Shown: positions 1,035-58,608 of the stretch, piece by piece
How positions within the stretch are numbered: the stretch's first letter is position 1
Layout: each line of letters begins with the position of its first letter
Assembly: GCA_946500265.1 (NCBI GenBank)
Contig: CAMMVE010000003.1
Location: 21,882 to 85,881, forward strand
Source of the DNA: an uncultured Clostridium sp.
Lineage (GTDB): Bacteria > Bacillota > Clostridia > TANB77 > CAG-508
Length of the DNA: 64,000 nt
Direction: 5' to 3'
The notes under the pieces: generated by a model
The model's input: only the letters and a program-made list of their open reading frames with translations
What the model was told of the DNA's origin: nothing
The model's database searches: none
Position numbers and translations under genes: made by a program

Positions 1035-1103
1035 ATGAAAAGAAATAGAAACGCCAGAACCGTTGATACTGTAAGAGAGAGAGAGAGAGAGAGAGTAATT
1101 TAG
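1035..1103 (+). CDS. Putative leader-peptide uORF (MKRNRNARTVDTVRERERERVI) spanning the (AG)11 tract
   Basis: AAGGAG ~11 nt upstream of ATG 1035; equivalent SD-preceded uORFs at 4090-4146, 17278-17331, 58383-58484; translation unproven. Confidence 0.3.
   Translation: MKRNRNARTVDTVRERERERVI
1074..1095. repeat. (AG)11 dinucleotide microsatellite
   Basis: Perfect AG x11 read directly; identical tract at 4120-4141 and 17307-17328. Confidence 0.95.
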
Positions 1104-1286: not shown

Positions 1287-3251
1287 ATGTTAATAAAAAT
1301 AAAAAGTAATGATATAGAAAAATCAGAAAAAGACAATGGTATAACATTAGTTGCATTAGTAATAACGGTAATAATTATAATAATTCTAGCGACGGTAACA
1401 CTAAACTTTACATTCGGAGAAGATGGAATAATAACGAAGGCAAACCAAGCAAAATACATGGCAGAATTATCAACATTTCAAGAAGAACTAGGGCTATATA
1501 AAGCAAATAAACAAATCTCAGAAGAAGGATTTAGTGCAGAGAGTATAACAGCAGGAGAAGGAAACTTAAGTTATGTAACAGATGATGGAATAGTAACAGA
1601 AGGAACAATATATGATGTAATAACAAGTTTAAGAGGAAGTAGTTTTGCAGGCAAAATGGAGATAATAAAAGGAGAGCTACTAATAAACTCACAAGATATG
1701 GAGGAGATAAGAGTAGCACAAAGTATGGGAATACAAGTAAATCCATATATAATAGTAGATGGAGAACTAAAGTCAGATGGAGCAAACCTAGCACTAATGG
1801 ATAGTTCTGGAACACTAACAATACCAGATGGAGTAACAGCAATAGGAGAGGGAGCATTTGCAGATTTAAGTGGATTAAAAACAATAATAATACCAGGGAC
1901 AGTAAAAGAAATAAGGCAAAATGCATTTAGAAATAATGCAGATTTAGAGAATGTGATTTTACAAGAAGGAGTGGAAGTAATAGGATATAGAGCTTTTCAA
2001 GAATGTGGTAACCTAAAAAATGTAGAATTACCAGAGAGCTTGATAGAGATAGGCGCGGGTGCATTTTTTAGATGCAGTAGTATAAATAATATAATAATAC
2101 CATCGAAGATAGAAATAATAAATGCTTATACTTTTTATTATTGTACTAGTTTGACAAATATAGAATTACCAGATGGACTACAAACAATAGGTGGTTGGTC
2201 TTTTCAAAATTGTACTAGTTTAGAAGAAATATATATACCAGGGAGCGTAAATAGCATAAATAGTACCGCATTTATGAACTGTACAAGTTTAAACAATATA
2301 GAAGTGGCAAGTGGTAATCAACATTATAAATATGATGAGGCAAGTGGAATGTTAATAACAACAGATGGAACAAATATTGTATTTATATCTGCTGCAATTT
2401 TAAGAAGCACAAACACTTTAAACATACCACAAGGAGTAACAAGTTTTACTACAGACATAAGTGAATATAGAAATATAACAACCATAATAATACCAACAAG
2501 TTTAGAAAGAATAGGAACTGCGGAAATATTCCCATTAACAATAAGTAATGTAGAAGTGGCAGAAGGTAACAATTATTTTACAGAGGAAAATGAGTGCTTA
2601 TATAATAAAGATAAAACCAATTTAATTATGTGCTTTACAAAAGATTCAACAGTAAAACTAGCAGATACATTAACAACAGTAAACGATTTTTCATTTAAAC
2701 AAGCACCTAACATAGGACAAGTGAATTTCCCAGATGCTGTTACCACTATAGGAGCTCAAGTATTCACACCTGGCCTTACAAGTTTGGAAAATATAAATAT
2801 AGGGCCAAATGTAACATATATACATCCACTATTTAAATGGAATAATTATTATGGAGAAGTAACAATAGATGCAAATAACCCAAACTACACTATAGAAGAT
2901 AATGAGATATATAACAAGGATAAAACCGAATTAATAGCAGTCTTGTATGAAATTAATGGGCAATACATTGTAAAAGAAGGAGTGACAAAAATAGGAGATA
3001 ATGCATTACATTATAGAACAAATATGACTTCGATAGTACTACCAGATGGATTAAAAGAAATAGGAAGTTCTTTCCAAAATAGTGGATTAACTACAATATA
3101 TATACCAAACAGTGTAGACACGATAGAAAGTAATGCTTTTCTAAATGCAGCAAATCTAACTCAAATCCAAATAGACAAAGAGCCTGGAAGTATAGCAGGC
3201 TCGCCATGGGGAGCAATAAGAGGAGATAGAATAGTAGAGTGGCTAAGATAA
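1287..3251 (+). CDS. BspA-type leucine-rich-repeat (LRR_5-like) surface protein with prepilin-like N-terminal hydrophobic segment
   Basis: AGGAGG 8 nt before ATG 1287 (ORF-track start 1251 has no RBS); repeated ~23-aa units xIGxxAFxxCxxLxxIxIPxSVxxI; N-term KDNG-ITLVALVITVIIIIIL resembles class III signal (Ala not Glu at +5). Confidence 0.8.
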   Translation: MLIKIKSNDIEKSEKDNGITLVALVITVIIIIILATVTLNFTFGEDGIITKANQAKYMAELSTFQEELGLYKANKQISEEGFSAESITAGEGNLSYVTDDGIVTEGTIYDVITSLRGSSFAGKMEIIKGELLINSQDMEEIRVAQSMGIQVNPYIIVDGELKSDGANLALMDSSGTLTIPDGVTAIGEGAFADLSGLKTIIIPGTVKEIRQNAFRNNADLENVILQEGVEVIGYRAFQECGNLKNVELPESLIEIGAGAFFRCSSINNIIIPSKIEIINAYTFYYCTSLTNIELPDGLQTIGGWSFQNCTSLEEIYIPGSVNSINSTAFMNCTSLNNIEVASGNQHYKYDEASGMLITTDGTNIVFISAAILRSTNTLNIPQGVTSFTTDISEYRNITTIIIPTSLERIGTAEIFPLTISNVEVAEGNNYFTEENECLYNKDKTNLIMCFTKDSTVKLADTLTTVNDFSFKQAPNIGQVNFPDAVTTIGAQVFTPGLTSLENINIGPNVTYIHPLFKWNNYYGEVTIDANNPNYTIEDNEIYNKDKTELIAVLYEINGQYIVKEGVTKIGDNALHYRTNMTSIVLPDGLKEIGSSFQNSGLTTIYIPNSVDTIESNAFLNAANLTQIQIDKEPGSIAGSPWGAIRGDRIVEWLR

Positions 3252-3335
3252 GATTAGTTTTAGAGTAAATAAAAGGCTGATTCAAAAATATTATGCAAAA
3301 GAAAATTGCCTACAAAATATTAAAAAAATAAATGA

Positions 3336-3373
3336 AAAATTGGTGGAGAATTAGCTCCTCTACCAATTTTTTG
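3336..3373 (+). terminator. Intrinsic terminator after LRR gene 1
   Basis: Imperfect hairpin AATTGGTGGAG..CTCCTCTACCAATT followed by TTTTTTG. Confidence 0.45.
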
Positions 3374-3639
3374 TTAGCATCAAACTAACAAATAAATTAA
3401 AAAATCCGTTACTTGTCCCAAAATGTGATTTGATAAATAGCTTTAATATAGTAATTTAAAAAAAATTATGATATACTAATGAGTATATAAAGATTAGTTT
3501 CAACGAAATAGCGGACAAGTATGTTTAATAAATTTGATTAACTAATAGTATAAATATAAAAATGGAGAAGAAATTATACATGTACATTTTGAAAGACTAA
3601 CTGACAATGGATTTGATAGTGTTAGGTTTGAACTTCCAA

Positions 3640-3870
3640 GTTGTAAAATACTATACAGATGAAGAAATAGAAATGTTTAGAGCGATAGTAGAAAGAGGTT
3701 TGCCATCTTTTTATAGATGGGCTAGACAAGGAGGGATTCTTAGTGCCTAATATACTAGAAATTTTACGGTTATAAAATTTATTTTTGGTCAAATGAGAAT
3801 AATGAGCCTATTCATATACACATTTCAAAAGGAAAGACAACACAAAACCCAGAGCAAGAAGTAAGATTTT
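3640..3870 (+). pseudogene. Degraded remnants of a DUF4160-like gene (..NENNEPIHIHISKGK.. motif) and a neighbouring small gene, split over frames
   Basis: Short frames ..YYTDEEIEMFRAIVERGLPSFYRWARQGGILSA* and ..TVIKFIFGQ / NENNEPIHIHISKGKTTQNPEQEVRFYC*; NEPxHxH motif recalled for DUF4160; no intact ORF. Confidence 0.3.
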
Positions 3871-3946
3871 ATTGTTAATGGTTGGAAGTTATAAGTTATA
3901 ATATATAAAGTTATTCCGTGAAGATGTAAAAAAATAAAATATATAC

Positions 3947-3975
3947 TTGAAAAATAGATGCTAATAAGGTAAAAT
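3947..3975 (+). promoter_or_regulatory. Promoter of cassette copy 2 (TTGAAA-17-TAAAAT)
   Basis: -35 3947-3952, -10 3970-3975; same context as 885-913. Confidence 0.45.
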
Positions 3976-4334
3976 AGAAAAAGTTAATATAAAAGAAGGA
4001 TATATAGCAAAAAGAGTAAATTTTAAACAGCATATTGCGTATTAAATAACGATAAGCATAAGAGTAAAAAACGAAGGAGAATGAAAAAAATGAAAAACCA
4101 GCAAACCGTTGATATTGTAAGAGAGAGAGAGAGAGAGAGAGCATAATTTAGAGAAATTAAGCTTTATTTGTGATGCACAAAATAAAGTAGAAATAAAAAA
4201 TAAATATGAGTATATAAATAAAACAGATTATTTTGCAATATTTAAGTTGACAGATACAAAGCAACCATTATTGCAGGATAGTCTGTTTTATTGACCTCTT
4301 GAAAAGAACAATATAAATTTCAGGAGGTAAGAAA
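3976..4334 (+). promoter_or_regulatory. Conserved 5' leader copy 2 (uORF 4090-4146 with (AG)11, GGATAGTCTGTTTT at 4276-4289)
   Basis: Near-identical to 914-1286. Confidence 0.4.
4120..4141. repeat. (AG)11 microsatellite
   Basis: Perfect AG x11. Confidence 0.95.
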
Positions 4335-6308
4335 ATGTTAATAAAAATAAAAAGTAATGATATAGAAAAATCAGAAAAAGACAATGGTATAACATTAGTT
4401 GCATTAGTAATAACGGTAATAATTATAATAATTCTAGCGACGGTAACACTAAACTTTACATTCGGAGAAGATGGAATAATAACGAAGGCAAACCAAGCAA
4501 AATACATGGCAGAATTATCAACATTTCAAGAAGAACTAGGGCTATATAAAGCAAATAAACAAATCTCAGAAGAAGGATTTAGTGCAGAGAGTATAACAGC
4601 AGGAGAAGGAAACTTAAGTTATGTAACAGATGATGGAATAGTAACAGAAGGAACAATATATGATGTAATAACAAGTTTAAGAGGAAGTAGTTTTGCAGGT
4701 AAATTAGAAATAATAAAAGGAGAGCTACTAATAAATTCACAAGATATGGAAGAAATAAAAGTAGCACAAAGTATGGGAATACAAGTAAATCCATACATAA
4801 TAATAGATGGAGAACTAAAGTCAGATGGAGCAAACTTAGCACTAATGGATAGCACAGGGACATTAACAATACCGGATGGAGTAACGAAGATAGGAAATGG
4901 AGCATTTGCAAACTTAAGTGGCTTAAAGACAATAATAATACCAGGAACAGTAAAAGAGATAGGACAAGATGCTTTTAGAAATAATGCGGATTTAGAAAGA
5001 GTGATATTACAAGAAGGTGTAGAAATAATAGGTACAAGTGCATTTTATAGGTGTGAAAACCTTACAAATATAAGTTTACCCAACAGCATAAAAACTATAA
5101 AAAATCAAGCTTTTATGGAATGTGATGTTTTAGACAATATATCAATACCAAATCAAATACAGATAATAGAAAACTATACATTTTATAGTTGTGACAATTT
5201 GACAAATTTAAAATTATCAGATAGTTTACAAAAAATAGAAGCTGCTGCTTTTGCTGGTTGTACAAAATTAAATAATATCTATTTGCCTATGAATTTAAAA
5301 GATATAACATATAATGCATTTGATAATTGCATAAATTTAATAAATATAGAAATAGCGAAAGAAAATACGAAATATAGTTATAATAAAGAAAATGGAATAT
5401 TATTAGATATAGAAAGCAATGACATTATATTCATATCAAGTTCAGCATTAAATAATATAACCACATTTAGTATACCAGATGGAATTAGAGAATTTAAAAA
5501 TGATATTAGTCAATATACTAATATACAAACAATAATTATACCTAAGAGTTTAGAAAAGATTTATTTGATAGAAATTCTTCCAAAAAGTATATCAAATATA
5601 GAAATTATTGAAGGAAATACAAATTTTGTTGTTGAAAATGAATGCTTATACAATACAGATAAAACAGAATTAATGTTATGTTTTACAAAAGATACAGAAG
5701 TAAATTTAGCAAGTAGCATAGTAAAAGTATATGATTACGCATTTAAGTGTGCACCTAATTTAGAGAATATAACATTTCCTAATTCAGTAACTAGCATAGG
5801 TGGTCAAGCACTAAGAGACTGCACAAAGTTAAAGAATGTATATATAGGACCAAATGTATCATCTATAAATCCAATTTTTAAATTTAAAAACTATAGTGGA
5901 ACAGTAGTTATTGATGAAGCAAATCCAAATTACAGTATTGAAAATAATGAAATATATAATAAAGACAAGACAGAGCTAATTTCTATATTACATGATATTC
6001 AGGGTAGTTATACAGTAAAAGATGGGGTGACTAAAATAGGAGACAGAGTATTTCATTATATGGGGAAAATGACAGAAATAATATTGCCAGAAGGCTTGAA
6101 AGAAATAGGAACTTCTTTTAATTCTTGTACAAGATTAACAGAAATATTTATACCAAACAGTGTAGATAAAATAGCATCAGATGCGTTTAAAAATTCAACA
6201 AACTTAATGCATATACGTATAGATAAAGCTCCAAACACTATAGAAGGAGCACCATGGGGAGCTATAAGCTGGGATAGAGCAGTAGAGTGGCTAAGACCGG
6301 AAGAATAA
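4335..6308 (+). CDS. BspA-type LRR surface protein paralog with prepilin-like N-terminus
   Basis: AGGAGG before ATG 4335; first ~140 aa near-identical to gene at 1287 then divergent LRR_5-like repeats; C-terminal APWGAISWDRAVEWLR shared. Confidence 0.85.
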   Translation: MLIKIKSNDIEKSEKDNGITLVALVITVIIIIILATVTLNFTFGEDGIITKANQAKYMAELSTFQEELGLYKANKQISEEGFSAESITAGEGNLSYVTDDGIVTEGTIYDVITSLRGSSFAGKLEIIKGELLINSQDMEEIKVAQSMGIQVNPYIIIDGELKSDGANLALMDSTGTLTIPDGVTKIGNGAFANLSGLKTIIIPGTVKEIGQDAFRNNADLERVILQEGVEIIGTSAFYRCENLTNISLPNSIKTIKNQAFMECDVLDNISIPNQIQIIENYTFYSCDNLTNLKLSDSLQKIEAAAFAGCTKLNNIYLPMNLKDITYNAFDNCINLINIEIAKENTKYSYNKENGILLDIESNDIIFISSSALNNITTFSIPDGIREFKNDISQYTNIQTIIIPKSLEKIYLIEILPKSISNIEIIEGNTNFVVENECLYNTDKTELMLCFTKDTEVNLASSIVKVYDYAFKCAPNLENITFPNSVTSIGGQALRDCTKLKNVYIGPNVSSINPIFKFKNYSGTVVIDEANPNYSIENNEIYNKDKTELISILHDIQGSYTVKDGVTKIGDRVFHYMGKMTEIILPEGLKEIGTSFNSCTRLTEIFIPNSVDKIASDAFKNSTNLMHIRIDKAPNTIEGAPWGAISWDRAVEWLRPEE

Positions 6309-6800
6309 ATGAGCACAGTACTCATATAGCAGAAAAAGTATAAAAATGCAAGAACACGATAATATAATAAGGAATTGCTTACTCCAAAGTTATACAAAGG
6401 TCGAAATATATCATAAAATGTCGAAAAGTTATGATTGATTTCGACCTATATTTGTGATATAAATATAAACATAATGATTAGGTCTAATGTGCAATTCAAA
6501 TTATTACTTTATGAAATAGTTTAATAGTATCTATTTTTTACTCAATAATATAATTAGTTCAATATATTAAAATTGAAATCTTGATTAATTAAAATATTCT
6601 GCATACAAATACATATAAATTTTTATTATTATTTGTTAATATATCTTAATATTTCATTAGTTTTCAATCAAATAAAATCCAAATGATTAATTTAATATAT
6701 TTAATTTAAACAAAATCTCAACAAAAAACCAAGAGAAAAATAAAAAATATACAATGTACACAAGATTTAATTGTTAAATAAATTTTAGGAGGAATTGTGT

Positions 6801-7703
6801 ATGGAACAAAACAAATCAAAAGAAATAAAGAAGGAAGAAATATTATCACCGATGATAGATGTAGTATTTCAAATGTTATTTGGAGAGGTGGGGAGTGAGA
6901 AGATAACACAAGATTTTTTAAGTGCAATATTAAAAGAAAAAATAGAAACAATAAGTTTAGATCAAAATATAGTATTACGAAGAGAGTTACCCAAAGGGAA
7001 AATGGGTATAGTAGATGTGTTAGCAAAAATAAATGACAATGAATTTTGCAATGTAGAAATGCAAATGGCAGACAAAAAGAATATGATAAAGAGGATGTTA
7101 TATTACTGGGCAAGGCAGTATGCAAAAGAAATAGGCAAAAAAGAGGAGTATAAAGAACTAAAAAGGACAATAGTAGTACTAATAGCAAATTTTGAATTTG
7201 ATAAATTGAGAGAATTAGGAGTACATAGCAGATGGAAAATAATAGAGGAAGAAAGGCGAAAAATAGTATTGACAGAGGATTTAGAGTTTAATATAATTGA
7301 AGTACCAAAAATGTATAAGGAGAAACAAGCAAGAGACGAAAAGCTAATAGAATGCCTAAAATTCTTGGAGAATCCGGAAAGCAAAGAGGTGCAGGGGTAT
7401 ATGAAAAAGAATGAGAATATGAAAGAAGCAAGAGAGAAACTAGACAAAATGAGTAAGGATGAGAAAGTAAGAAGGATGGCAGAATTAAGACAAAAGGCAC
7501 TAATGGATGAAAGAGAAGCTGAATATACAGGTTATATTAATGGGTTAGAAGATGGAATAAAGCAAGGAATGAAACAGGGACTAGAGCAAGGAATAGGGCA
7601 AGGATATAGAGAAATTGCGAAGAAAATGAAAGGCAAAGGAAAAGATATAAATGAAATAATTGAATTAACCGGATTAAGTAAAGAAGAAATAGAAAAGTTG
7701 TAA
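6801..7703 (+). CDS. Rpn-family recombination-promoting nuclease / PD-(D/E)XK putative transposase (YhgA-like)
   Basis: TAGGAGG 8 nt before ATG 6801; conserved N-terminal ..MIDVVFQMLFG..FLSAILK..DVLAKIND..NVEMQ.. block and Gly/Gln-rich C-terminal tail typical of the family. Confidence 0.75.
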   Translation: MEQNKSKEIKKEEILSPMIDVVFQMLFGEVGSEKITQDFLSAILKEKIETISLDQNIVLRRELPKGKMGIVDVLAKINDNEFCNVEMQMADKKNMIKRMLYYWARQYAKEIGKKEEYKELKRTIVVLIANFEFDKLRELGVHSRWKIIEEERRKIVLTEDLEFNIIEVPKMYKEKQARDEKLIECLKFLENPESKEVQGYMKKNENMKEAREKLDKMSKDEKVRRMAELRQKALMDEREAEYTGYINGLEDGIKQGMKQGLEQGIGQGYREIAKKMKGKGKDINEIIELTGLSKEEIEKL

Positions 7704-15235: not shown

Positions 15236-15333
15236 GACAAGGGGACAGTCCCCTCGTCTCAGTTTTGAACAGAAGGGACACTCCTTTTTGTTCAAGTTTT
15301 TGAACTTTTTGGAGTGTCCCTTCTGTTCAAGTT
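15236..15333. repeat. A-type palindromic element (two hairpins; perfect 21-bp inverted repeat CTTGAACAGAAGGGACACTCC) between convergent genes
   Basis: CTGAGACAAGGGGACAGTCCCCTCGTCTCAG then CTTGAACAGAAGGGACACTCC...GGAGTGTCCCTTCTGTTCAAG; likely bidirectional terminator. Confidence 0.65.
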
Positions 15334-17192: not shown

Positions 17193-17221
17193 TTGAAAAA
17201 GAAATGCTGTTAAGGTAGAAT
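17193..17221 (+). promoter_or_regulatory. Promoter of cassette copy 3 (TTGAAA-17-TAGAAT)
   Basis: -35 17193-17198, -10 17216-17221; A-rich UP-like tract upstream. Confidence 0.45.
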
Positions 17222-17563
17222 AAAGGCATACTAAGATAAAAAAAGTAAAAGGATTAAAAAAATACAAAGGAGAAAAAATGAGAATGCATAGAACCATTGA
17301 TACTGTAGAGAGAGAGAGAGAGAGAGAGTAGAATTTAGAGAAACTAGCTTTTTTTGTGATGCAAAAAAAGTAGTAAATATATTAAAGATAGAAACAATAA
17401 ATATATGTGCAAATAAAGCAGATTATCAAGAAGTATTAGGAGTTTTTGAAATTCTAATGCTAACGGATAGTCTGTTTTTTTGGTGAGTTTATTAAAAACA
17501 AAATAAAGAGATAATAATAAAAGAAAGATTAAAATTTTAAGAAAACGGAGGTACAAAAAGAAA
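17222..17563 (+). promoter_or_regulatory. 5' leader copy 3 (uORF 17278-17331 MRMHRTIDTVERERERE, (AG)11, GGATAGTCTGTTTTTTT 17464-17480)
   Basis: Diverged but alignable to leaders at 914 and 3976; same order of elements. Confidence 0.4.
17307..17328. repeat. (AG)11 microsatellite
   Basis: Perfect AG x11. Confidence 0.95.
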
Positions 17564-32096: not shown

Positions 32097-32137
32097 CTTG
32101 AACAAAAGGGACACTCCTTTTTGTTCAAGCTCTTGAA
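32097..32137. repeat. A-type palindromic element CTTGAACAAAAGGGACACTCCTTTTTGTTCAAG
   Basis: Hairpin with GACACT loop; shares core with 15272-15330, 33051-33172, 63508-63600. Confidence 0.6.
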
Positions 32138-32217
32138 CATTTGAGATAGTTATATTCGTTCAATTCAAGAAAAACAAAAGACGAAAGGATCTACTGCCTT
32201 TCGCTTAAGTTTTCTAT

Positions 32218-32940: not shown

Positions 32941-33050
32941 ATCTAGTCACCTCTTATACTTTTTTATTTATAAATTCTATCTATCTCTACTAAAAAATAT
33001 TATAACATATAAATGTATATTTTTTTATTAATAATTTATTAAAATTAAAA

Positions 33051-33172
33051 GTGTCCCAAAAGTTCAAAGACTTGAACGAAAAGGAGTGTTCCTAAAGTTC
33101 AAAGACTTGAACGAAAAGGAGTGTCCCTAAAGTTTAAAAAATGGACAAAAAGGAGCGTCCTTTTTGCCCAAG
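33051..33172. repeat. Tandem array (about 3 units) of A-type elements (GGAGTGTyCCTAAAGTTCAAAGACTTGAACGAAAA) ending in hairpin CAAAAAGGAGCGTCCTTTTTG
   Basis: Direct repeats read in sequence; last hairpin plus T-run on minus strand serves as murC terminator. Confidence 0.6.
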
Positions 33173-33179
33173 ATAGAGC

Positions 33180-37302: not shown

Positions 37303-37351
37303 GGCAAATCACATAAAAAGTCGTTAAATAAAAAGTTGAATAAAAAAGCAC

Positions 37352-37380
37352 TTGAAAAATAAATGCTACTAAGATAGAAT
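37352..37380 (+). promoter_or_regulatory. Orphan copy of the cassette promoter (TTGAAA-17-TAGAAT) without (AG)n leader
   Basis: CACTTGAAAAATAAATGCTACTAAGATAGAAT nearly identical to 17191-17221 and 58294-58324. Confidence 0.35.
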
Positions 37381-37602
37381 AAAACTATCATGGGACAAGG
37401 ATCATTTCTTCCAACTTATTTTTATTTGTAGCAGCTTCTTGCTCTTTGTATTGCTCAATTTGAAGCTCCATTAATTCTTGTGGTGAATATCCATATAAAC
37501 AATAATGTGGAAGTAGGAAGAAAATCTTTCAAAAAAGTTGTAATAAATGCTAAATTATTATATAATATATATGTACTTTATTTAATTGAATATGGAGGAA
37601 AT

Positions 37603-37896
37603 ATGCCAACAGAATTAAAAAAATATTTTTGGGATACTGATTTTGAAAGATTAGATTTACAAAAAAATAAAGAATATATAATATCAAGATTATATTGTTA
37701 TGGAGATTTGAAAGCAATAAGATGGGTAAACAATACATATTCAAGAGAAGACATAAAAAAAGTTGCTATAAAAAGGAGAGATTTAAAACCAATTGTTGCC
37801 AATTATTTAAGGCAGCAGTTCAATTTGAAAAAAGAAGAGATGGCGTATTATAGAACAGTATCAGCAATAAATTACGAATATTGGAAGGTGAATTAG
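37603..37896 (+). CDS. Small protein upstream partner of AbiEii-like toxin (possible antitoxin)
   Basis: TGGAGGAA SD before ATG 37603; 97 aa (..KKYFWDTDFERLDLQKNKEYIISRLYCYGDLKAIRW..); ends 4 nt before next gene. Confidence 0.5.
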   Translation: MPTELKKYFWDTDFERLDLQKNKEYIISRLYCYGDLKAIRWVNNTYSREDIKKVAIKRRDLKPIVANYLRQQFNLKKEEMAYYRTVSAINYEYWKVN

Positions 37897-37899
37897 CAT

Positions 37900-38550
37900 A
37901 TGCATTTTGAAATAATAGATAAAGCTAGGTTTGAATTATTAAAAAAAATAACAGAAAATGTAAGTATTCCTAATTATTATATGATAGGTGGCACAGGACT
38001 TTCGCTACAGTTAGGACTTCGAGAATCTTTTGATTTTGATTTTTGCGTAAAAGACCAATTTAATAATGAACTCCTATTAGAAGAACTAAAATGTTTAGGT
38101 CAAACTGAAGTAAAACAAAATCAAAAAGGTACTTGCGATGTAATAATTAATGGAGTACAAGTTAGCTTCTTTTATTATCCTAACAAAATTATAAACAATT
38201 ATGTAACAACAAAAGAAATCCCTAAATTAAAAATAGCTAGTATTCTAGATATTGCAATAATGAAAATTGTAGCAATAGGAGGAAGAGGTGCTAAAAAAGA
38301 TTTCTTTGATTTATATCAGATAATAAATAAATGTAATATTAGTCTTAATGATTTAGCAAATGGATTAATTCAAAAGTGTGGAACAAATGTGAACTTTGCC
38401 AATATTGTTATGGGATTAAGCTATTTTGAAGATGCAGAACAAGAAAATTTACCTAAAACTTTTGTAGAATACAACTGGAATGAAATAAAAAAATTTTTTG
38501 TGAAATTTCAAGCAGAATTTTGCAACATATTAGAAAAACTAGAAACATAA
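37900..38550 (+). CDS. AbiEii/AbiGii-family nucleotidyltransferase toxin (DUF1814-like)
   Basis: N-terminal ..YYMIGGTGLSLQLGLRESFDFDFCV.. matches the GGTAL...R.S.DIDF nucleotidyltransferase motif of AbiEii toxins. Confidence 0.65.
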   Translation: MHFEIIDKARFELLKKITENVSIPNYYMIGGTGLSLQLGLRESFDFDFCVKDQFNNELLLEELKCLGQTEVKQNQKGTCDVIINGVQVSFFYYPNKIINNYVTTKEIPKLKIASILDIAIMKIVAIGGRGAKKDFFDLYQIINKCNISLNDLANGLIQKCGTNVNFANIVMGLSYFEDAEQENLPKTFVEYNWNEIKKFFVKFQAEFCNILEKLET

Positions 38551-46038: not shown

Positions 46039-46054
46039 TAATTTGTTTGAAAAT

Positions 46055-46152
46055 CAGCAGTCTGCGTCGTTAAACTGCGTAAAAATTTTTTCAATGTACA
46101 GCTTGTACTATTTCAAAAATTTTTACTTGTTTGCCTAGCATCCTACTAATTT
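46055..46152. repeat. C-type large imperfect palindrome between rpsN and rpsH
   Basis: Arms GCGTAAAAATTTTTTCAATGTACAG / CTTGTACTATTTCAAAAATTTTTAC; ..TGCCTAGCA.. tail shared with other copies. Confidence 0.6.
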
Positions 46153-47177: not shown

Positions 47178-47355
47178 AAGCTTAAATGAAAAGCTTCGTC
47201 TTACGTTGTTAGCCTTCACAAATAATTTTTCAATCTACAAATCGTACTATTTCAAAATTATTTGCTTGGCTGCCTAGTAATACTTGCTTTTGATTTAAGC
47301 AGAGACATGCTGAAAGCAATACTCGTTTTTGATTAAAATTTGCCGAGTATATAAT
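47178..47355. repeat. C-type repeat (two sub-units) between rplF and rplR
   Basis: AAGCTTCGTCTTACGTTGTTAGCC..TTTTTCAATCTACAAATCGTACTATTTCAAAA..GGCTGCCTAGTAATACTTGCTTTTGATT.. ; aligns to 52765-52965. Confidence 0.6.
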
Positions 47356-52764: not shown

Positions 52765-52965
52765 ATGAAAAGCTTCGTATTGCGTTGTCAAGCGTCGCAT
52801 AAAATTTTTTCGATATACACAAGTATTATCTCAAAAATTTTAGCTAGCTTTCCTAGCACTACTCGCTTTTGATTTGTTTTAAATAAAAAAGAATTAAAAG
52901 TACGTCTAACAAAATATGCTGAAAATTAGCTCGGCTGCCTTGTTATACTCGCTTCTAATTCGAAT
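52765..52965. repeat. C-type repeat (two sub-units) between rpsM and rpsK
   Basis: GAAAAGCTTCGTATTGCGTTGTCAAGCG..TTTTTTCGATATACACAAGTATTATCTCAAAAATTTTAGCTAGCTTTCCTAGCACTACTCGCTTTTGATT.. and ..CTCGGCTGCCTTGTTATACTCGCTTCTAATT. Confidence 0.6.
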
Positions 52966-58295: not shown

Positions 58296-58324
58296 TTGAA
58301 AAATGAATACTGTTAAGGTAGAAT
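58296..58324 (+). promoter_or_regulatory. Promoter of cassette copy 4 (TTGAAA-17-TAGAAT)
   Basis: Identical spacing and near-identical sequence to 17193-17221; downstream leader retains uORF start (58383) but (AG)n reduced to (AG)3 and GGATAGTCTG motif lost. Confidence 0.4.
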
Positions 58325-58608
58325 AAGAATATGCTAGAAGGTTACGCATGAACAAATGAAAATAAGGAGAAAAAATAAAGAAATGAAAATTGATAAAACT
58401 CTTGATACTGTAGAGAGATACAATTTACTCAACATGGATATCGAAATCAGTATCAGAAGAGAACTATACAGAAGAATTAGATAGAATAAAAACAAGTGAA
58501 GGCTTAAGAAATGATATTGAATTAAGTCTTATTTGTGATATAGAAAAAGTAAAAAGGAAGAATGTCACAATATAGTACGAAAAAACTAGAAAAAGGAGAT
58601 AAAAGAGT

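Follow-up and report, generated by a model that had tools for sequence, protein, structure and literature searches.

Three genes for surface proteins in the 64,000-nt stretch of DNA analysed here (the window) are each preceded by a leader in which a perfect AG repeat lies within a short open reading frame (ORF), and the number of AG units determines whether that frame stops at the tract or continues across a large terminator-like hairpin. The apparent "uORF" is the front part of an ∼64–78 aa leader ORF, put out of frame by the tract. We interpret the arrangement as slipped-strand phase variation of the leader ORF coupled to read-through of the putative terminator, an interpretation to which we give a probability of roughly 0.6; the AG tract would then most likely be a random on/off switch for the surface-protein genes. 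An earlier note on the same DNA was right about the short ORF and about a stop that is moved by the repeat, but missed the long frame, the terminator-like hairpin, and a further hairpin that sequesters the Shine–Dalgarno (SD) site of the main gene.

Leader reading frames and AG tract length

The three perfect (AG)11 tracts that had been pointed out in the cassette leaders lie at 1074–1095 (copy 1), 4120–4141 (copy 2), and 17307–17328 (copy 3), all on the plus strand, as are all the cassette features described below. Matches to the AG tract as 16-mers number 12 in the window, whose G+C content is 30%, as against 0 expected from shuffles of it, and the window holds no further long AG tracts besides these three. 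In each copy a short ORF preceded by an SD site crosses the tract and stops just after it, as the earlier note had described. The copy 1 ORF, in its present out-of-frame short state, spans 1035–1103 (22 aa, MKRNRNARTVDTVRERERERVI*) and ends with TAG at 1101–1103; its SD site, GGAG at 1022–1025, is 9 nt before the ATG at 1035. Copy 2 (4081–4146, stop TAA at 4144–4146) can start at ATG 4081 or ATG 4090, the SD spacing being better for the latter (10 nt from the GGAG at 4076–4079, compared to 1 nt), while copy 3 (17278–17331, 17 aa, stop TAG at 17329–17331) has GGAG at 17269–17272 and a spacer of 5 nt to ATG 17278. The GGAG sites are therefore present as claimed, and the spacings, though shorter than the 11–13 nt given for them, are workable. 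A decayed fourth copy (58296–58625) keeps the promoter and the leader start, and carries only (AG)3 at 58412–58417, again as previously noted; it is without the terminator hairpin, and its main ORF is frameshifted.

Three-frame translation of copies 1–3 reveals a second open frame of ∼50 codons running from the end of each tract: at 1097–1246 in copy 1 (NLEKLSFICCAQ...DSLFY*, also given as NLEKLSFICCAQNK...DSLFY*; stop TGA 1244–1246), at 4145–4294 in copy 2 (stop TGA 4292–4294), and at 17331–17486 in copy 3 (EFRETSFFCDAKK...DSLFFW*; stop TGA 17484–17486). The other two frames over the same stretch contain 6–9 stops, and an open frame that long arises in ∼1% of dinucleotide-preserving shuffles of this AT-rich sequence. 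Used alone as a protein query, the C-terminal frame retrieves 26 metagenome proteins of 64–88 aa, most of which join the N-terminal "uORF" to the continuation in a single frame; the fused leader ORFs found in metagenomes are 64–78 aa long and have identical flanks. Copy 1-type fused proteins consist of MKRNRNARTVDTV, then RES, RERES, RERERES, or RERERERES, then NLEKLSF..., corresponding to 4, 7, 10, and 13 AG units; copy 2-type fused proteins correspond to 9 and 12 units; and the copy 3-type ORF, used as a second protein query, retrieves fused alleles with one to four ER units. In-frame fused ORFs overall thus have 4, 7, 9, 10, 12, or 13 units. The long frame is restored by 7, 10, or 13 units in copies 1 and 3 and by 9 or 12 units in copy 2, and none of the three window copies, at n = 11, is in the long frame. 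We reject the idea that the two frames are joined by programmed ribosomal frameshifting or by transcriptional slippage, because copies 1 and 3 would need a −1 shift but copy 2 a +1 shift, and because real DNA alleles exist in every frame.

Orthologous loci were reached through their neighbours (the Era gene, and the copy 3 protein), so that the sample is unbiased by the state of the small ORF. On gut-metagenome contigs the tract has 7, 10, 11, and 12 units at copy 1 loci, 11 and 11 units at copy 2 loci, and 8, 10, 11, and 12 units plus a non-repeat allele at copy 3 loci, all of these being consensus lengths that vary between strains or assemblies. The flanks of the window tract (n = 11) and of that on contig L026 (n = 10) are 100% identical over 204 + 216 nt, and ten copy 3 leaders differ only in the tract, in one SNP, and in three A/T homopolymer runs. 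Counting AG units in other strains, a check proposed in the earlier note, therefore yields variation between assemblies (7, 8, 10, 11, and 12 units), and that note's argument for selection on a length of 11 units does not hold, since the known lengths range from 4 to 13 and 11 is out of frame in all three copies. Selection for exactly 11 units is thereby rejected; the equal length of the three window tracts is not conservation, because orthologous loci vary from 7 to 12 units, and 11 units is just the commonest state. Short-frame alleles make up 16 of the 20 neighbour-reached loci (the window counted), a predominance that counts against the switch model.

The non-repeat copy 3 allele (GTAGAGAGAAG), present on 5 of 10 contigs (L016, L018, L020, L022, and L023), is a locked short-frame state, with the downstream gene unchanged. 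Since this locked allele is common and is accompanied by an identical downstream protein, either basal read-through suffices or some expression persists in the short state. In the non-repeat haplotype the U-run of the large hairpin is T6, not T7, and two of its five contigs also have T6 in the T run of hairpin 1 (both hairpins are described below). Contig L021 bears an in-frame derivative of the non-repeat allele, encoding 73 aa.

Promoters, hairpins, and stop positions

Each leader starts from a promoter with a 17-nt spacer, TTGAAA and TAAAAT in copy 1 (885–913) and copy 2 (3947–3975), and TTGAAA and TAGAAT in copy 3 (17193–17221); the block ACTTG(A/C)AAAA, 17-nt spacer, TA(A/G)AAT is common to all leader types. 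Just after the short-frame stops comes a small A/U-rich hairpin, hairpin 1 (1113–1140 in copy 1, UUUAUUUGUG...CACAAAAUAAA), the pairing of which is kept in copy 3 with a different sequence (UUUUUUUG/CAAAAAAA); it is a putative pause site. The large terminator-like hairpin follows at 1169–1244 in copy 1 (dG −32 to −34 kcal/mol, z −8.6, end GUUUUAUU), at 4217–4292 in copy 2 (dG −29 to −31 kcal/mol, z −7.8), and at 17410–17482 in copy 3 (dG −27 kcal/mol, z −5.2, then U7). It is 64–76 nt in length, with a U-run at its end or just 3′ of the stem. The outer stem, 24 bp in copies 1 and 2 (AAUAAAACAGAUUAUUUUGCAAUA with UAUUGCAGGAUAGUCUGUUUUAUU), shows 93% pairing across 13 distinct leaders, and the apical stems keep their pairing with unrelated sequences (GUUG/CAAC, GGAG/CUCC, GUAUUAGGAG/UUCUAAUGC); in the leader of contig L045 the entire hairpin differs in sequence while its position is unchanged. 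Covariation in the outer stem is modest, with 2 pairs changed on both sides in the MAFFT alignment. We disregarded the "compensatory" counts in the SD helix, which come from misaligned long-spacer types.

A consensus terminator scan of the window does not call the large hairpin, because the 3–8 nt loop rule of that scan excludes it. Two features of the hairpin are caveats on its reading as a terminator: its stem is longer and richer in A and U than usual, and copy 1-type leaders have a broken U-run (UUUUAUU, or UUUUACU in L002). Rfam gives no match at gathering score for the leader, and its sub-threshold matches to the large hairpin are solely to eukaryotic miRNA hairpin models; in the leaders we found no alternative pairing that would make an antiterminator.

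The stops of the three frames hold regular positions relative to the hairpin. Across 12 leader types, in which the dG of the hairpin ranges from −21 to −36 kcal/mol, short-frame stops fall 0–10 nt past the tract and 47–76 nt before the hairpin, and the long-frame stop falls −5 to +5 nt from the hairpin 3′ end; the exception is one short frame of L045, whose stop lies 29 nt past the tract, 21 nt short of the hairpin. The proposal that a change in repeat number moves the ORF stop is thus strongly supported, the two positions being at the tract and, ∼150 nt later, at the hairpin.

In copies 1 and 2 a further hairpin is predicted to sequester the SD site of the main gene (1246–1280, ACCUUUUGAAA with UUUCAGGAGGU, and 4294–4328, ACCUCUUGAAA with UUUCAGGAGGU). 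This 11-bp hairpin on the AGGAGG of the main gene occurs in the short-spacer leaders (copy 1, copy 2, L038, L040, L042, and L043), and in all six the final base of the long-frame stop is also the first base of its 5′ arm. No SD hairpin is predicted in copy 3, L036, L039, L044, or L048, which have spacers of 55–275 nt.

Downstream of the large hairpin, a weak promoter-like match (9/12) overlaps the hairpin end in copy 2 (4291–4319), and no plus-strand promoter-like site lies between the copy 3 hairpin and its gene. In L045 (760–900), from a distant relative, a GC-rich insert of ∼70 nt, flanked by ∼25-nt inverted repeats, separates the terminator-like hairpin from the main gene, and a second promoter-like site (TTGCAA, 17-nt spacer, TATAAT) follows the hairpin. 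The promoter-like sites in copy 2 and L045 weigh against the switch model, and the lack of one in copy 3 in its favour.

The proposed switch and its alternatives

In the mechanism that we propose, a sigma-70-type promoter would be followed after ∼105 nt by the SD site and ATG of the leader ORF, and then by (AG)n, hairpin 1, the 64–76 nt hairpin and U-run acting as an intrinsic terminator, and the gene for the surface protein. Slipped-strand mispairing would change n by whole AG units and so shift the frame of the leader ORF. In two of the frames ribosomes would stop 0–10 nt past the tract, 47–76 nt upstream of the hairpin; the hairpin would form and transcription would end, giving an OFF or low state in which, for copies 1 and 2, the SD site of the main gene would also remain paired. 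All three window copies (n = 11) would be in this state. In the third frame the ribosome would cross both hairpin arms, translating ∼50 extra codons, and would stop ≤5 nt from the 3′ end, at a point that in copies 1 and 2 adjoins the arm pairing with the SD site; terminator formation would be prevented and read-through allowed, and the SD site would be opened with translational coupling, giving the ON state. That the hairpin terminates transcription and that translation overrides it, and hence which frame is ON, we infer by analogy with the pil1 operon of S. gallolyticus (PMC3894217; see below), and tract frame would set expression by this route. Transcription–translation coupling is loose in some members of the Bacillota, which counts against the model. 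The phase-variation or attenuation switch suggested in the earlier note stands insofar as the tract is the single hypervariable site in otherwise identical leaders and its frame sets the stop; the argument from selected length that was offered for it does not.

The same frame switch might instead act after transcription, with long-frame translation unmasking the ribosome-binding site of the main gene or shielding the ∼24-bp duplex from RNase III, and with termination unmodulated. The SD hairpin of the six short-spacer leaders, so placed that the long-frame stop touches its 5′ arm, speaks for such an effect, as does a stem whose length, AU-richness, and perfect pairing are atypical for an intrinsic terminator. 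Yet the five leaders for which no SD hairpin is predicted keep the large hairpin, the U-run, and the stop position, and a U-run follows the stem in every leader type; we therefore regard a purely post-transcriptional effect as unlikely. Less probable by about half is that the ∼70-aa product is itself functional, as a regulator or as an accessory factor of the surface protein, which would make the tract a classic contingency-gene switch. A complete ORF with SD site and ATG is indeed kept in all types, in-frame length variants from (RE)1 to (RE)4 are tolerated, and the leader peptides share a conserved segment, (N/E)(L/F)(E/R)K.SF(I/F)CDA(Q/K), as well as DY and LF motifs. Against a function of the peptide, variable sites in ten aligned leaders number 14, 15, and 16 at codon positions 1, 2, and 3, with no excess at third positions, and the replacements are radical (C/D/N, I/N, S/Y, V/D, and L/P). 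The C-terminal half of the leader ORF tracks the hairpin sequence, shows no peptide motif, and is wholly different in L045. Synonymous sites in the conserved segment are conserved too, so that constraint at the nucleotide level is indicated, namely from the alternative-frame stops and hairpin 1. The peptide has no family in Pfam or NCBIfam, and AlphaFold2 predicts a single long featureless helix (pTM 0.27, uninformative on function).

We consider it very improbable that the tract is a neutral 5′-leader microsatellite, with length differences that are of no regulatory consequence or are assembly noise. The assembly lengths are, it is true, consensus values, and the non-repeat allele has an intact downstream gene. 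However, at least 12 leader types retain tracts of 9–13 units despite the divergence of their flanks, exactly two frames stop directly past the tract with the third open to the hairpin, and reads are easily long enough to span a 22-bp tract, the same lengths recurring in independent assemblies. The features conserved across leader types are the start and the tract, the stops close behind it in two frames, the openness of the third frame, the hairpin, and the stop position. As judged from these alignments, translation rather than the peptide appears to be under selection, and the pattern is the signature that a cis-acting leader ORF would leave. Phase variation of the leader ORF coupled to terminator read-through is accordingly the reading that we prefer.

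Surface-protein genes, genomic setting, and known switches

The main ORFs begin 190–235 nt past the tracts, each with its own SD site and ATG. Genes 1 (1287–3251) and 2 (4335–6308) encode proteins of 654 and 657 aa in which a hydrophobic, pilin-like segment at the N-terminus is combined with BspA-type LRR_5 repeats (PF13306, 237 and 275 bits, above gathering score); gene 3 (17564–18976) encodes a 470-aa protein that shares the pilin-like N-terminus and matches no Pfam domain. The N-terminal module (R/N/K)GITLVALVIT.I..IILATVT is common to the downstream genes, and the C-termini across the family are BspA-type LRR_5, an FGE-sulfatase-like domain, or of no known domain. We do not identify these proteins as type IV pilins or pseudopilins: the N-terminus (..NG|ITLVALVITVIIII..) has A at +5 where a prepilin signal has E, and the sole match to a pilin model is to TIGR01710 GspG (E 0.03, 14 bits against a cut-off of 88.85). 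By sequence, the resemblance to pilins is confined to the N-terminal hydrophobic segment.

Members of the family are found at six or more genomic sites, namely after a hydrogenase gene (twice) and after AMP-binding, pheST, CmpB, and NTP-transferase genes. The host, an uncultured member of the Bacillota that recurs in many independent gut-metagenome assemblies, is probably spore-forming, given the nusA–ylxR–ylxQ–infB gene order and a SpoIVA gene on contig L048, whose sample also yielded contig L001/L026, near-identical to this locus. In tblastn, Era is at most 48% identical to known Bacillota. Of the wider searches, a genome-contig scan with the leader DNA pattern gave five matches, all in unrelated taxa and ascribed to chance, and recovered no relative, a metagenome-contig scan with the small-protein alignment returned one partial locus (L025), and plasmid blastn with the leader returned no match.

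Cassettes in the window are trailed by genes, or a remnant, for PD-(D/E)XK (PDDEXK_2, Rpn-like) nucleases/transposases, at 6795–7703, 19495–20292, and ∼60650–61045, and these genes could promote recombination between cassettes. On contigs L027 and L029 a single 656-aa LRR gene, without PDDEXK_2, lies between the hydrogenase gene and era, an interval that in the window (1287–7703) holds two LRR genes and a PDDEXK_2 gene; the change in cassette number between strains is consistent with recombination between repeated leader/N-terminus modules. A broader scheme, in which the leader frame would set read-through and SD unmasking independently at six or more paralogous loci with a common promoter, leader, and N-terminus module, the Rpn-like PD-(D/E)XK nucleases would shuffle or delete cassettes, and the helical RE-repeat peptide would perhaps have a length-dependent function, would amount to two-layer combinatorial variation of the cell coat; we offer it as speculation, somewhat less probable than the post-transcriptional effect considered above.

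Several other elements of the window were noted in passing. A structured repeat of ∼95 nt sits in three ribosomal-protein operon gaps, rplE|rpsH (46048–46138), rplF|rplR (47187–47277), and rpsM|rpsK (52766–52856); its consensus folds into a long hairpin with 34 pairs, of which 11 are changed on both sides among the three copies, and it has no Rfam match. Palindromic/tandem 35-nt repeats (TTGAAC..AAGGGACACTCC..), resembling a REP or MITE element, are intergenic at 15265–15330, 32098–32163, 33035–33177, and 63509–63594. A cassette-like promoter precedes a DUF6922 and AbiEii pair (type IV toxin–antitoxin-like) at 37331–38550, and the spacer from cassette 1 to the cassette 2 promoter (3540–3900) holds broken ORF fragments (..NNEPIHIHISKGK..) that suggest a decayed small gene.

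Several well-known systems share parts of the proposed design. Neisseria opa genes, discussed in PMC3894217, carry CTCTT repeats in the signal-peptide coding region; the AG cassettes are similar in forming a multi-locus surface-protein family in which slipped-strand frameshifting would switch each member independently, most copies probably being OFF at a time, but here the repeat is in a separate upstream ORF, outside the structural gene. A classic intragenic contingency gene with a simple sequence repeat is ruled out, since the tract lies outside the main coding sequence; switching would therefore work through transcription/translation coupling and not through product truncation. The cwpV gene of Clostridioides difficile, switched by site-specific DNA inversion with no leader translation, likewise has phase-variable terminator formation in the 5′ leader of a clostridial surface-protein gene, whereas the agent here would be repeat slippage together with a translated leader ORF. 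As in trp-type attenuation, the position of a ribosome on a leader ORF would decide whether the downstream terminator forms, but without regulatory codons or an antiterminator, and with a heritable frame change rather than charged tRNA as the input.

The closest parallel is with the pilus operons of Streptococcus gallolyticus. The pil1 and pil3 operons there are preceded by GCAGA repeats of 13–23 units in a leader peptide, followed by a stem-loop terminator of dG ∼−28 kcal/mol, and for both it has been shown experimentally that long peptides extending to it give high expression (Danne et al. 2014, PMC3894217). Both systems have a repeat unit not divisible by 3 inside a leader ORF, a promoter upstream, and one or more surface-appendage genes downstream; a stem-loop of comparable stability (∼−28 kcal/mol in S. 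gallolyticus and −27 to −34 in the AG leaders); short-frame stops tens of nucleotides before the hairpin and long-frame stops within or just past it; more than one locus per genome; and a gut-associated host of the Bacillota. They differ in that the repeat here is AG in 7–13 units as compared to GCAGA in 13–23, that one frame of three is long here whereas out-of-frame changes give the long peptides there, and that the long-frame stop here is fixed ≤5 nt from the hairpin 3′ end. An SD-sequestering hairpin is added in one subfamily here, and the targets are single pilin-like/LRR genes at six or more paralogous loci, not sortase pili. Switching is experimentally shown for pil1 and pil3, whereas for the AG leaders it is predicted from sequence. 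As judged by the repeat unit, no sequence relationship to the pil1 leader is evident, and the AG leaders are best called an analogue of it.

Repeat-controlled leader-peptide attenuation is a rare switch type: our literature search found no further example of it beyond S. gallolyticus, in whose pili alone the combination of a repeat-bearing leader peptide with phase variation at a terminator has experimental proof. The AG cassettes look like an independent, non-homologous invention of the pil1 logic, with a dinucleotide repeat and at multiple loci. If this is borne out, the switch design would be a general solution rather than a curiosity, and it would have a signature by which it could be searched for: a repeat tract with stops close behind it in two frames, and a third frame that runs to a terminator. 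A frameshifted "uORF" before a surface-protein gene in a metagenome-assembled genome would then be a switch state, not annotation noise or a pseudogene.
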